Shown here piece by piece: positions 22,142 to 24,252 of a stretch of 64,000 nucleotides of DNA. The number at the start of each line of letters is the position of its first letter. The stretch's first letter is position 1. A program made the translations under genes and the position numbers. The notes beneath the pieces were generated by a model. The model did no database searches and had not been told where the DNA came from. It saw nothing but the letters and a program-made list of their open reading frames with translations. This DNA is from a virus (Duplodnaviria > Heunggongvirae > Uroviricota > Caudoviricetes): the IMG/VR virus record IMGVR_UViG_647533160_000003. One strand, written 5' to 3'.

Positions 22142-23314
22142 ATGGATTTGTTCTCAACCAAAATAGCAAAAAACAAGCTGCACGAATCTTTTAAACAGAT
22201 TTATCAAGATAATACATATGCTCCAGTAAGAGAAGTGATACAGTCGTGGGGGCGTGGGTTACTGGAGCGTAGCGGTGAGCAGACTAAATTCGTTAAAGAG
22301 TTTCAGACAACCTTCAATTCCGCCTTATGGGAATTGTATCTGAACGAAATGTTTATTCGTCTCGATTATTCTGTCGACTACACAAAAGACAGTCCCGATT
22401 TCTGTGTTACTACACCGTCAGGCTACCAGTTTAACGTCGAAGCTGTGATATCAGATCGGCCACATAATCCACCTGCAGGTGCTCTTTTTAGCGAATCAAA
22501 ATTCAAACATCAATCAACGCTAAAATTAATCGGAAAAATCAAAGACAAACATGATCTTTTTACAGGAGTTAATGGCAAAAAATTCCCGTACTCTACGATG
22601 TCTCATGTAGTTAATAAGCCGTTTGTTCTGGCGCTTGCACCCTTTGACTCCGATTTATCATTGTCTCAAAATAACACAATCATCAATCGAGTGTTGTTTG
22701 GCATTGAGGAACCTACCACCAGAAATTTGGTGACTGGCAGCCAAACTAAAGTTACCTCAATCAAAAAGAATGAAGACGTTGAAATTCCATTAGGTATATT
22801 TACTAACGACTCATATAAAGAAATAAGTGCGGTTATTTTCTCCACCACCGGCACTTTTGGAAAAGCCGTGGTTCAAAGCGGTATCGGTAGATATGTAAGG
22901 TCAACACGATATCGAGCCATTGATGTGAATGATTTCATCGCCAATGAAGGGATGAAAAACGAGGGAAAGCACACACAAAGGATAGGACCTGATCATTTCA
23001 TCACTACATATCGGCATTTTTTAAATAACGAAGTCACTGGTGCGGATATTGTAGTTTGCCATTCCACTGCTCATGAAGAGACGCACTTTGACGGCCTTCA
23101 TATTTACTACAATCCTTTTGCGACAGTGCCACTGGACAGAAATATTTTCTTCCCCCCAGAGATAACTCATAATTTTTACGATATGGAAAAAGAACAGTCT
23201 GTTCAGAATCATCCTGATGGAGCGCTGGTATCTAGACAGGTTTTTGAACCAACTAGAGCACATTTTAGGTATATCATGAAACATTGGTTTCCAGGCTTTC
23301 TAAAAGATGTTTAA
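22142..23314 (+). CDS. hypothetical protein (approx 390 aa)
   Basis: Long ORF; ATG 22142 preferred over TTG 22118; no motif recognised. Confidence 0.45.
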   Translation: MDLFSTKIAKNKLHESFKQIYQDNTYAPVREVIQSWGRGLLERSGEQTKFVKEFQTTFNSALWELYLNEMFIRLDYSVDYTKDSPDFCVTTPSGYQFNVEAVISDRPHNPPAGALFSESKFKHQSTLKLIGKIKDKHDLFTGVNGKKFPYSTMSHVVNKPFVLALAPFDSDLSLSQNNTIINRVLFGIEEPTTRNLVTGSQTKVTSIKKNEDVEIPLGIFTNDSYKEISAVIFSTTGTFGKAVVQSGIGRYVRSTRYRAIDVNDFIANEGMKNEGKHTQRIGPDHFITTYRHFLNNEVTGADIVVCHSTAHEETHFDGLHIYYNPFATVPLDRNIFFPPEITHNFYDMEKEQSVQNHPDGALVSRQVFEPTRAHFRYIMKHWFPGFLKDV

Positions 23315-23511
23315 GCATCCTGCTGGTTGAATTTGGAACCTGCTTCTGTATATAAATACTAAGTTACTTATTATTATTTATACGGAAGCAGGTCTTTTTC
23401 TATGCCAACTTCCCAGACACATTCCCTTCCGTTTCCACTTCCAAAAACTGCCACCAGTCGCTATCATCCGCTCATTGCAATAAGTAAGTAACTACCTATC
23501 AGGTGAGCCAC

Positions 23512-24252
23512 ATGAGCCAAATCTTTTTTGATACCATTGACAACGACCAGTACGACTTCATGACAGAGTGGAATACCGCTGTTATGGACAAGTGGGTCGC
23601 TGAAAACATTGGTTTGTCGCGCTGCAAAGACGAGGCTGAACTCTTCGAGACGAAGTGGTTTGATTACCGCGATATGCATCCTCTCATGGCCACCTGTCTG
23701 TTTACGGAGGCGTACAAACGTCAGTACTCAAATATCATGCTGACGCACGGTCGCGAACACTTTGAAACAGCTCCGTTCACCACCGGGTTAAAACGCCTGC
23801 CTTATCAGGAGTTGTCGACTGCCAATAAAACGTCGCTATGGAAAGCACGCCAGTTTGCTGATCGCTATTGCTGTTCATACGACTACTTTATCTCCACGGT
23901 TCTTTCCGCAGCTGCACGGCGTCTGTGGGACAAGTTGCCGCGCCCACAGCATTTATGGCAGCCAGAACTGATTGAGATATTCGAAGAGAAATTATCCAGA
24001 CGCGCAACAACCCGTCTGGATGACTCTCTGGTTAGCTTTAAGCATATGGGAGACATGCAGTTCAACCCGATTCAGGAAAGCTATTTTGAGTGGATTCTGG
24101 AGCGTTTGCGCATCATCCCCCGCAGCAAGCGCATACGCGCAATTTTCTCTGCTATCTGGCTAATGGAAATCGTTCCAGAGCGCCTTATTTCCGCCCACTT
24201 TCCAGAAGAACTGGAAGAAGCACGGCGGTTTATTGATCCCCTATCTAATTAA
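23512..24252 (+). CDS. hypothetical protein (approx 246 aa)
   Basis: ATG 23512 with AGGTGA upstream (track start is in-frame GTG 23503); precedes helicase gene. Confidence 0.45.
   Translation: MSQIFFDTIDNDQYDFMTEWNTAVMDKWVAENIGLSRCKDEAELFETKWFDYRDMHPLMATCLFTEAYKRQYSNIMLTHGREHFETAPFTTGLKRLPYQELSTANKTSLWKARQFADRYCCSYDYFISTVLSAAARRLWDKLPRPQHLWQPELIEIFEEKLSRRATTRLDDSLVSFKHMGDMQFNPIQESYFEWILERLRIIPRSKRIRAIFSAIWLMEIVPERLISAHFPEELEEARRFIDPLSN

Follow-up and report, generated by a model that had tools for sequence, protein, structure and literature searches.

A PD-T7-5 family gene in a variable cargo slot and a conserved helicase-linked gene in an SSU5-like phage-plasmid of Escherichia coli

Closest described systems

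PD-T7-5 was described in E. coli UMB0934 as a single gene whose 390-aa product (RRM82777.1) was validated against T7 and labeled "Nuclease" (Vassallo et al. 2022, Nat Microbiol). The prototype ORF (27110-28283) was cloned with only 143 nt of upstream and 119 nt of downstream DNA, and HHpred matches of its product to Hjc, FokI_C, PDDEXK_5, and RmuC fall at residues 59-107. That paper's main text does not discuss PD-T7-5 by name, and we found no publication on its mechanism or trigger in the literature searched. PD-(D/E)xK nucleases whose lysine is displaced (XisH-like 2okf; CdiA-CT toxins 4g6v and 4g6u) are also among the closest known systems.

Temperate phages can carry alternative defense genes at a fixed site, as in the P2 hotspot flanked by the replication endonuclease gene and the portal gene (Vassallo 2022). 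Papers on SSU5 elements have described resistance gene insertions at other sites, near PhoH or ligase, and a 2025 preprint reports PD-T7-5 and PD-T4-3 on SSU5 phage-plasmids of E. coli and Shigella. Carriage of PD-T7-5 by SSU5 phage-plasmids is already known at the survey level. Less well covered so far is the slot architecture, in which cargo with at least twelve different contents lies between a partition operon and its terminator; we found no paper that maps this slot from parG to the hairpin.

The interval from 22142 to 24252 analyzed here consists of two unrelated genes with a conserved terminator hairpin between them. We consider it very probable that the first, ORF1, is PD-T7-5 defense cargo and a likely nuclease, and that the second, ORF2, is a gene of the replication cluster and a likely helicase partner.

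A variable slot between a parG-like gene and a terminator-like hairpin

The window is a 64,000-nt stretch (IMG/VR record IMGVR_UViG_647533160_000003) of an E. coli SSU5-like phage-plasmid, with 99.9% identity to pLH09-a-C over the stretches compared. Its plus strand carries, in order, ParA, a ParG-like protein, a DUF2971 gene, ORF1, ORF2, a DnaB-like helicase, and a primase. The first-pass annotation had placed two genes of about 390 and 246 aa, together with a DUF2971-like gene, between parA/parG and the helicase, and this order was recovered. The two are plus-strand ORFs exactly at 22142-23314 (ORF1) and 23512-24252 (ORF2), and both are annotated by PGAP in pLH09-a-C. Both proved to be real genes: ORF1 has 565 homologs, while ORF2 finds matches in at least 767 clusters built at 50% identity and has a dN/dS of 0.055 against SSU5. 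On the left flank, the ParA-type partition ATPase (20285-20953, +; Pfam AAA_31/MipZ/CbiA/ParA; phrog_164, E = 2e-51) is a backbone gene that PhiR41_1 and Cyrano share at ~96-98% nucleotide identity. The small partner that follows (20953-21312, +; 119 aa; phrog_5111, E = 4.5e-80) had no match in a Pfam search and is a presumptive ParG by its position.

The slot extends from 21313 to 23337. Its left edge coincides with the stop codon of the parG-like gene, where homology to PhiR41_1 and SSU5 ends (21312/21313); Cyrano continues to 21380. Homology to PhiR41_1, Cyrano, and SSU5 restarts at 23327-23339. In PhiR41_1 and Cyrano, identity across the flanks is 96-98%, and the interior is unrelated: the 2-kb segment, which here holds the DUF2971 gene and PD-T7-5 at a GC content of 0.401, shows no homology at the nucleotide level to PhiR41_1 or SSU5, and this cassette is not present in PhiR41_1, Cyrano, or SSU5. 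At the right edge, the first bases of the backbone form an intrinsic-terminator-like hairpin followed by a U-run (23338-23400, +), which was identified by repeat search and RNA folding. Its 15-nt arms are 93% complementary, the predicted folding energy is -31.3 kcal/mol (z = -5.0), and it is found upstream of ORF2 in all 78 related loci.

The slot is variable among relatives. Across 74 IMG/VR loci, ORF2 starts 202 to 2214 nt beyond the end of the ParG match, and 12 different contents occur, the empty state among them. A GIY-YIG PD-T4-3-like gene is present in 25 loci, DUF2971 in 9, and a KAP NTPase in 6; 5 slots are empty, and others hold further cargo, among it a pair of membrane proteins and, in 12 to 16 loci, a 352-aa gene without assignment. 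Judged by their sequence matches, the slot cargos of SSU5-like phage-plasmids are mostly defense-type genes. PD-T7-5 occupies the slot in 4 of the 74 loci, 2 of them without DUF2971. In loci L064 and L065, a 77%-identical ORF1 homolog fills this slot without DUF2971; dS between ORF1 and this homolog is saturated. The exact 2-kb cassette was found in 13 of 5426 complete E. coli genomes, on a plasmid in every case, and the ORF1 cassette in 11 plasmid records. The contents are presumably exchanged by recombination through the conserved flanks. As at hotspots of temperate phages such as P2, alternative defense genes sit at a fixed intergenic site with conserved flanks in near-identical elements; unlike the P2 hotspot, this site lies in a phage-plasmid, between the partition operon and its terminator. 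The slot from parG to the terminator thus offers a cheap route to further defense candidates.

The DUF2971 gene (21358-22075, +; Pfam DUF2971, E = 8e-07) also matches the PADLOC candidate system PDC-S31 (E = 2.6e-32). In the window it appears frameshifted by a 1-nt deletion in the A-run at 21900-21905, which breaks the frame at 21906-21908: the window has A6 where pLH09-a-C has A7, and the intact product is 239 aa. The cassette likewise measures 2026 nt in all 13 E. coli plasmid matches versus 2025 nt in the query. The product shares its domain with Aristaios, a lactococcal abortive-infection protein that has been experimentally validated in defense; the two are likened by this shared domain, and Aristaios is longer (316 aa). 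We considered DUF2971 as an obligatory partner of ORF1 and rejected this, as each is found without the other.

The interval had also been described as more AT rich than the replication genes. Its GC content is indeed 0.429, compared to 0.467-0.491 for the helicase and primase, but ORF2 is backbone-like (0.487), and the low value comes entirely from ORF1 (0.396, in the lowest 8% of same-size windows, with flanking genes at ~0.48-0.49) and the DUF2971 gene (0.407). A similar division applies to variability among relatives: the slot differs between close relatives, while ORF2 is present in essentially all of them.

A conserved gene upstream of the helicase

ORF2 is a backbone gene that starts beyond the slot boundary (23338). 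The earlier suggestion of accessory cargo suits ORF1 and the DUF2971 gene, which occupy the variable slot and of which ORF1 is recognized as a defense gene, but it does not hold for ORF2. The 246-aa product (phrog_2500, E = 8.4e-113) aligns over residues 4-244 to positions 1-247 of the 248-position phrog_2500 profile, which distant representatives match too. Its ATG is preceded by AGGTGA; an alternative GTG at 23503 would give 249 aa. ORF2 occurs in 937 plasmid records and the helicase in 930, and their counts by genus agree.

In the window, 43 nt separate ORF2 from the gene for the DnaB-like replicative helicase (24296-25636, +; Pfam DnaB_C, E = 3.9e-13; phrog_19, E = 1.2e-87), which is followed by a DnaG-type primase (25784-26899, +; Pfam DNAG_N/Toprim_2; phrog_47, E = 3.6e-63; the start follows the PGAP call in pLH09-a-C, and the longest ORF begins at 25646). 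A DnaB-like helicase follows ORF2 in 158 of 158 informative loci. Among close loci, ORF2 is present in 80 of 80, and the helicase starts 47-67 nt downstream in every one; in distant loci (27-46% identity to a distant family representative), a same-strand helicase follows in all 78 informative cases, with the primase next in nearly all. The virulent phages nickie and RHEph10 keep the ORF2-helicase order, with PhoH upstream in place of the par genes. The first-pass annotation had named conservation in all relatives, together with an assigned replication or structural role, as grounds for abandoning the cargo proposal; ORF2 is conserved in this way, and a replication role is suggested by its strict linkage to the helicase.

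Searches for function returned little. ORF2 had no match in Pfam, including Rep_3, or in NCBIfam or PADLOC, and only scattered single matches appeared when 44 family members were scanned against Pfam with a cutoff of E ≤ 10. PDB sequence searches with 20- and 44-sequence ORF2 profiles gave zero matches at E ≤ 10, and Foldseek against BFVD found no structural match at E ≤ 0.001 for the AlphaFold2 model, which is all-helical (pLDDT 72.6). Among 10 longer family members scanned against Pfam, an HNH endonuclease fusion was seen in one and no domain in the remaining nine; fusion partners thus give no hint of the role of ORF2.

In the lambda P, SPP1 G39P/G38P, T4 gp59, and DnaD-like systems, the helicase gene lies directly downstream. 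The proteins of these systems resemble ORF2 in being small, nonenzymatic, encoded immediately upstream of a helicase gene, and coinherited with it. The comparison is a functional analogy only: ORF2 shows no detectable sequence or fold similarity to the loader families DnaC/DnaI AAA+, lambda P, G39P, gp59, and DnaD/DnaB_2, and no AAA+ domain. We place ORF2 at the head of the replication cluster that the phage itself encodes (with the DnaB-like helicase and primase genes next), most likely as a helicase partner in lytic replication, either a loader or an origin-binding replisome organizer. This is our best guess at its biochemical role; the gene order also fits a regulator or another accessory protein.

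One alternative is that ORF2 is not a loader but the origin-binding initiator of lytic (phage-mode) replication, by analogy with P22 gp18 or SPP1 G38P, whose genes lie upstream of their helicase genes. ORF2 heads the helicase-primase cluster in every relative, and the sole recognizable initiator, the Rep3-type RepB (a Rep3_N protein, 55518-56732), which would serve the plasmid mode, is separate from it, 31 kb off in the plasmid module. An initiator would still be needed in nickie and RHEph10, virulent relatives that show no partition genes here, and the basic/aromatic motifs KWFDYR, WKARQxAD, and LPRP are conserved in the family. Against these points, neither a winged helix nor any other DNA-binding domain was detected in ORF2, the repeat search found no iterons or other repeats within or beside the gene, and the protein is acidic (pI 5.8). 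An initiator is possible but, on this balance, unlikely. ORF2 as the plasmid initiator was rejected, since RepB is located elsewhere. We likewise rejected a 6.5-kb Klebsiella "plasmid" carrying ORF2 as a mini-replicon, as it is a linear assembly fragment.

A transcriptional regulator, or some other early-operon accessory outside the replisome that travels with the helicase (e.g., a host-takeover factor), would agree with an all-helical protein lacking catalytic motifs and with a gene at the operon start, directly after the terminator. It would also agree with the faster evolution of ORF2 relative to the helicase, as seen in identities of 85-89% versus 90-95% to Klebsiella and Salmonella relatives and in a helicase dN/dS of 0.013. 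However, no HTH was detected, and the one-to-one linkage persists down to ~25-30% identity to the window's ORF2. Such linkage is tighter than expected for regulators and takeover factors, which typically belong to the most variable genes of a phage, and we regard this alternative as improbable.

The helicase partner reading can be extended in a more speculative direction, in which ORF2 founds a non-AAA+ all-helical class of loader or replisome organizer and the slot is an unmapped defense hotspot whose 352-aa gene and membrane-protein pair are new defense systems. Taken jointly, these proposals are tentative, and we lean somewhat against them. Such a class would span SSU5 phage-plasmids and a large group of ~100-120-kb phages (nickie-like and RHEph10-like). 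The ORF2 family, which is widespread and strictly helicase linked, makes a well-defined target for work on the loading of phage-encoded DnaB-like helicases.

ORF1, a member of the PD-T7-5 family

ORF1 (22142-23314, +; 390 aa) has no motif in Pfam or NCBIfam, as the first-pass annotation had found, but PADLOC identifies it as a PD-T7-5 family single-gene antiphage defense protein. Residues 1-371 match positions 1-342 of the 346-position profile PDLC04110 (E = 1.4e-139, 463 bits), which by profile comparison places ORF1 in the family. ORF1 and the prototype have the same length, both are single genes, and the profile match is full length. The ATG is preceded by GTGAGG; with an alternative TTG at 22118 the product would have 398 aa, but homologs begin at MDLF, which fits the 390-aa start. 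What had been a "hypothetical protein" of a common E. coli phage-plasmid family is thus reannotated as a validated type of antiphage defense gene, an assignment that bears on phage therapy and on the persistence of these elements in clinical lineages.

The predicted layout comprises an N-terminal domain with a PD-(D/E)xK-like (restriction-endonuclease-like) fold and a beta-rich C-terminal domain. Prediction of the PD-(D/E)xK/RmuC-like segment near residues 59-107 is weak for both ORF1 and the prototype; the invariant residues E64, D86, and E100 lie inside the segment matching prototype residues 59-107. Residues 1-241 also match positions 108-347 of the PD-T7-1 profile (E = 4e-42). PD-T7-1 (Vassallo et al. 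2022) thus has an N-terminal nuclease-like core in common with ORF1, but it is extended at the N terminus and differs at the C terminus, and ORF1 matches the PD-T7-5 model far better.

ORF1 is most likely a nuclease with an N-terminal PD-(D/E)xK-type catalytic domain, in which E64, D86, and E100 are candidate catalytic residues and the lysine would come from the following helix. For the C-terminal domain, the probable role is sensing of infection or control of activity. Activation of the protein by an infecting phage, T7 for example, would lead to cutting of nucleic acid, and the lysogen, hence the phage-plasmid, would be shielded from competing phages. Both the nuclease activity and a defense phenotype in this element are inferred.

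ORF1 could instead be a selfish or other nuclease outside defense, such as a homing endonuclease, an orphan restriction enzyme, or a plasmid-stabilizing addiction toxin. This seems highly improbable, as the PD-T7-5 prototype was selected and validated for phage defense as a single gene, and most alternative cargos of the slot match models of known or candidate defense systems. Moreover, no small antitoxin-like ORF adjoins ORF1, and it sits in a fixed intergenic slot, whereas homing endonucleases typically interrupt a host gene.

That ORF1, ORF2, and the DUF2971 gene form one accessory or defense block, with ORF2 as a second component or as an immunity or regulatory partner of ORF1, is barely credible: ORF1 and ORF2 share a strand, lie 197 nt apart, and both lack a Pfam domain, but they differ in plasmid records (937 for ORF2 versus 11 for the ORF1 cassette) and in GC content (0.396 versus 0.487), the conserved terminator-like hairpin parts them, ORF2 is equally present beside empty slots and unrelated cargo, and the prototype was active when its ORF was cloned alone with 119 nt beyond the stop, too short a stretch to include ORF2. 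ORF1 is variable, and ORF2 is conserved and helicase linked; therefore, we conclude that these are two genes and not one block. An ORF1-ORF2 two-gene system was rejected on the same difference in distribution.

A promoter-like site (TAGACA-16-CAAAAT, 9/12 matches; 21999-22026, +) lies within the 3' end of the DUF2971 gene and is a candidate for ORF1's own promoter, in a scan in which such sites were no more frequent overall than in shuffled sequence. It begins 143 nt upstream of the ORF1 ATG, and the cloned prototype fragment likewise starts 143 nt before its ATG; the two positions may correspond. The downstream end of that fragment, 119 nt after the ORF, falls beyond the hairpin in the window. 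Both ends are consistent with an identical native context for the prototype and ORF1.

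Gene layout and assignment of ORF1

The window is an Escherichia coli phage-plasmid of the SSU5 group. Its shared parts are ∼97% identical to those of phages PhiR41_1 and Cyrano, and its relative pLH09-a-C (NZ_CP100547) is 99.9% identical over three aligned stretches within 15313-56612, the N run at 36372-36996 left out. The two genes flagged in the first-pass annotation, ORF1 (22142-23314, 390 aa, ATG start with GTGAGG just before) and ORF2 (23512-24252, 246 aa, ATG start with AGGTGA just before), were found exactly there on the plus strand. The local order is ParA (20285-20953, plus strand), a ParG-like gene (20953-21312, plus strand, 119 aa), a DUF2971 gene, ORF1, ORF2, a DnaB-like helicase (24296-25636, plus strand), and primase. 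The plasmid-mode replication initiator is a Rep3-type RepB (Rep3_N, 404 aa) at 55518-56732 on the minus strand, 31 kb away from the phage helicase and primase genes, so that plasmid and phage replication modules are kept separate.

ORF1 had been described as lacking any assignable motif. This holds for Pfam and NCBIfam, neither of which gave a match, but not for PADLOC, whose PD-T7-5 model matches the full-length protein (E = 1.4e−139); the PADLOC PD-T7-1 model is also matched by the N-terminal 241 residues (4e−42). On this profile evidence, ORF1 belongs to the PD-T7-5 family of defence genes. PD-T7-5 was among 21 systems recovered by functional selection in E. coli (PMC9519451). Its prototype is a single ORF from strain UMB0934 (contig RRWJ01000050) labelled “Nuclease” (PMC9519451, Table S2) and, like ORF1, is 390 aa long. 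The only domain hints in the prototype were weak HHpred matches of residues 59 to 107 to Hjc, FokI_C, PDDEXK_5, and RmuC (PMC9519451). When 30 homologues with 48 to 79% identity to ORF1 were aligned, E64, D86, and E100 were invariant inside the equivalent segment, as were K128 and K136 in the helix that follows it. With moderate scores and no canonical lysine in the (D/E)xK motif, ORF1 is a probable nuclease by fold and a putative one by activity. The C-terminal part (approximately residues 250 to 370) is beta-rich and matched nothing informative.

Only 143 nt 5' and 119 nt 3' of the ORF were included in the prototype clone (PMC9519451, Table S2). In the window, the position 143 nt before the ORF1 ATG is 21999, the first base of TAGACA-16-CAAAAT, which is the only such promoter-like site upstream of ORF1, and the position 119 nt after ORF1 falls just past a hairpin. 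Set against these landmarks, the fragment ends would fit a prototype taken from the same context as ORF1.

The cargo slot between the parG-like gene and the hairpin

Nucleotide homology to PhiR41_1 and SSU5 ends at the parG-like stop codon (21312/21313), and homology to PhiR41_1, Cyrano, and SSU5 restarts at 23327-23339. The right-hand edge of this slot (21313-23337) is the hairpin at 23338-23400, a 15-bp stem followed by a U-run (folding z-score of −5.0), which is kept upstream of ORF2 in 78/78 loci. Cargo therefore enters between the partition operon and its apparent terminator. The slot holds a single minus-strand gene in PhiR41_1, a different DUF2971 gene in Cyrano, and three small genes plus DUF2971 in SSU5.

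The spacing between the ParG match and the ORF2 start varies among 74 IMG/VR relatives, from 202 nt where the slot is empty up to 2,214 nt; the contents form 12 classes. The most frequent cargo is a GIY-YIG protein with a PD-T4-3 match (25 loci), followed by a 352-aa protein (16 loci, 12 alone and 4 with DUF2971; on the minus strand in L026, for example), DUF2971/PDC-S31 variants alone (9 loci), a pair of predicted membrane proteins (7 loci, 4 alone and 3 with DUF2971; 214 and 136 aa in L063), a KAP-family P-loop NTPase with a PDC-S49 match (6 loci), and PD-T7-5 (4 loci, half with DUF2971). Five slots are empty, one holds a lipoprotein, and one holds a fragmented copy of the 352-aa gene. The 352-aa protein and the membrane-protein pair have no match in Pfam or PADLOC; because the same slot also hosts PD-T7-5, PD-T4-3-like, KAP NTPase, and DUF2971 genes, both cargos are candidate unknown defence genes. 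The SSU5_035/036 equivalents belong with these two cargos.

The AT richness seen by eye in the region applies exactly to the cargo (GC content of 0.396 for ORF1 and 0.407 for DUF2971) and not to ORF2 (0.487), which resembles ParA (0.477), the ParG-like gene (0.494), and the helicase (0.491). Only 13 of 5,426 complete E. coli genomes carry the exact 2-kb cassette, in every case on a plasmid; 11 PLSDB plasmids also have it. In a sequence collection, 381 index blocks contain the exact ORF1 protein, chiefly on 50- to 200-kb contigs, and the window's gene order was repeated in all 10 contexts inspected. The DUF2971/PDC-S31 gene (21358-22075) is intact in those 10 contexts (239 or 248 aa); in the window its reading frame is broken by the loss of 1 nt from the A-run at 21900-21906 (A6 versus A7 in pLH09-a-C), and the cassette is one base longer in 13/13 E. 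coli plasmid relatives. Either the gene was inactivated recently or the missing base is a homopolymer sequencing error.

PD-T7-5 and PD-T4-3 are already among the systems reported for E. coli/Shigella SSU5 phage-plasmids in a DefenseFinder screen of clinical isolates (2025 preprint, 10.1101/2025.09.12.675607). We found no paper mapping the slot between the parG-like gene and the hairpin; the resistance-gene insertion site of the SSU5_pHCM2 group lies elsewhere, with PhoH, DNA ligase, and hypothetical genes as its neighbours. ORF1 matches a known system, and surveys have already reported its context, so the finding is ordinary as a discovery. What interest is left concerns the exact layout of the slot, the cargos without assignment, and the uncharacterised helicase-linked ORF2 family.

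ORF2 and the replication helicase

The proposal that both genes are accessory cargo in a variable block survives for ORF1 and the DUF2971 gene, the predicted defence cargo, but not for ORF2, which belongs with the helicase and is a conserved backbone gene. The helicase starts 47 to 67 nt past ORF2 in 80/80 close IMG/VR loci. By tblastn, ORF2 is found in 937 plasmid records and the adjoining helicase in 930, with nearly matching counts by genus (for example, Klebsiella, 345/345; Enterobacter, 91/91; Salmonella, 49/49; Citrobacter, 23/23; and Aeromonas, 11/11). Among 1.84 billion representatives, a profile search returned 767 ORF2-family clusters, chiefly of 220 to 260 aa. In a distant set of 80 loci (27 to 46% identity to a distant representative), a same-strand DnaB-like helicase follows the ORF2 homologue in 78, nearly all with primase next, and the other two contigs stop within ∼200 nt of the homologue. 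The virulent phages nickie (Pseudomonas) and RHEph10 (Rhizobium) carry PhoH, an ORF2 homologue, helicase, and primase, with no partition genes at the ORF2-upstream position. ORF2 is under strong purifying selection (dN/dS versus SSU5 of 0.055; helicase, 0.013; ParA, 0.040).

In the non-plasmid relatives (these two phages and the 80 loci L089-L168), a PhoH-like gene sits directly upstream of the ORF2 homologue, the position of parA, the parG-like gene, and cargo in SSU5-like elements. This suggests that the partition module, too, was acquired at this junction of the lysis and replication modules.

ORF2 matches phrog_2500 (E = 8.4e−113), a family of unknown function with three conserved motifs, KWFDYRxxHP, WKARQxAD, and LPRPxQL. 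Its AlphaFold2 model is all-helical (pLDDT of 72.6); Foldseek searches of viral models, scans of 44 family members for Pfam domains, and profile searches against the PDB sequence set all returned nothing. ORF2 stays paired one-to-one with a phage-encoded DnaB-like helicase even between very deeply diverged relatives, which tentatively favors a helicase loader or replisome organiser as the most likely role. An origin-binding lytic initiator ranks second as a less likely role; no iterons were found near ORF2. A regulator or other accessory ranks below the initiator.

Other variable and defence loci

A second variable spot lies directly 3' of primase (26891-28683), with a minus-strand 381-aa Sel1-repeat protein (26891-28036) bearing an N-terminal hydrophobic, signal-peptide-like segment and a putative 137-aa lipoprotein (28270-28683). 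Cyrano and PhiR41_1 lack both and have a 260-aa gene directly after primase; SSU5 has a different minus-strand gene there. Upstream of parA, two genes (18947-20122; 132 and 258 aa; phrog_2594 and phrog_3307) without Pfam matches are replaced in Cyrano by an opposite-strand KacT-type toxin-antitoxin pair, so variation extends to the left of the partition module as well.

A second defence locus (33610-35714, minus strand; GC content of 0.32 to 0.38) encodes an AbiGi-family protein (34848-35714; Pfam, 4.8e−25; PADLOC, 5.3e−47) and, downstream, a 403-aa partner (33610-34821) that matched neither AbiGii nor any other Pfam or PADLOC model. The 625-N run at 36372-36996 accounts for the dip to 15.5% GC in the composition profile. 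In pLH09-a-C, otherwise 99.9% identical, the counterpart gap measures only 185 nt (record positions 19617-19801), so that either ∼440 extra bases are hidden or the masking is not to scale. A 77-aa lipoprotein (17024-17257) without a Pfam or PADLOC match is named “phage exclusion lipoprotein Cor” by PGAP in pLH09-a-C and would add a further superinfection-exclusion function to the element.
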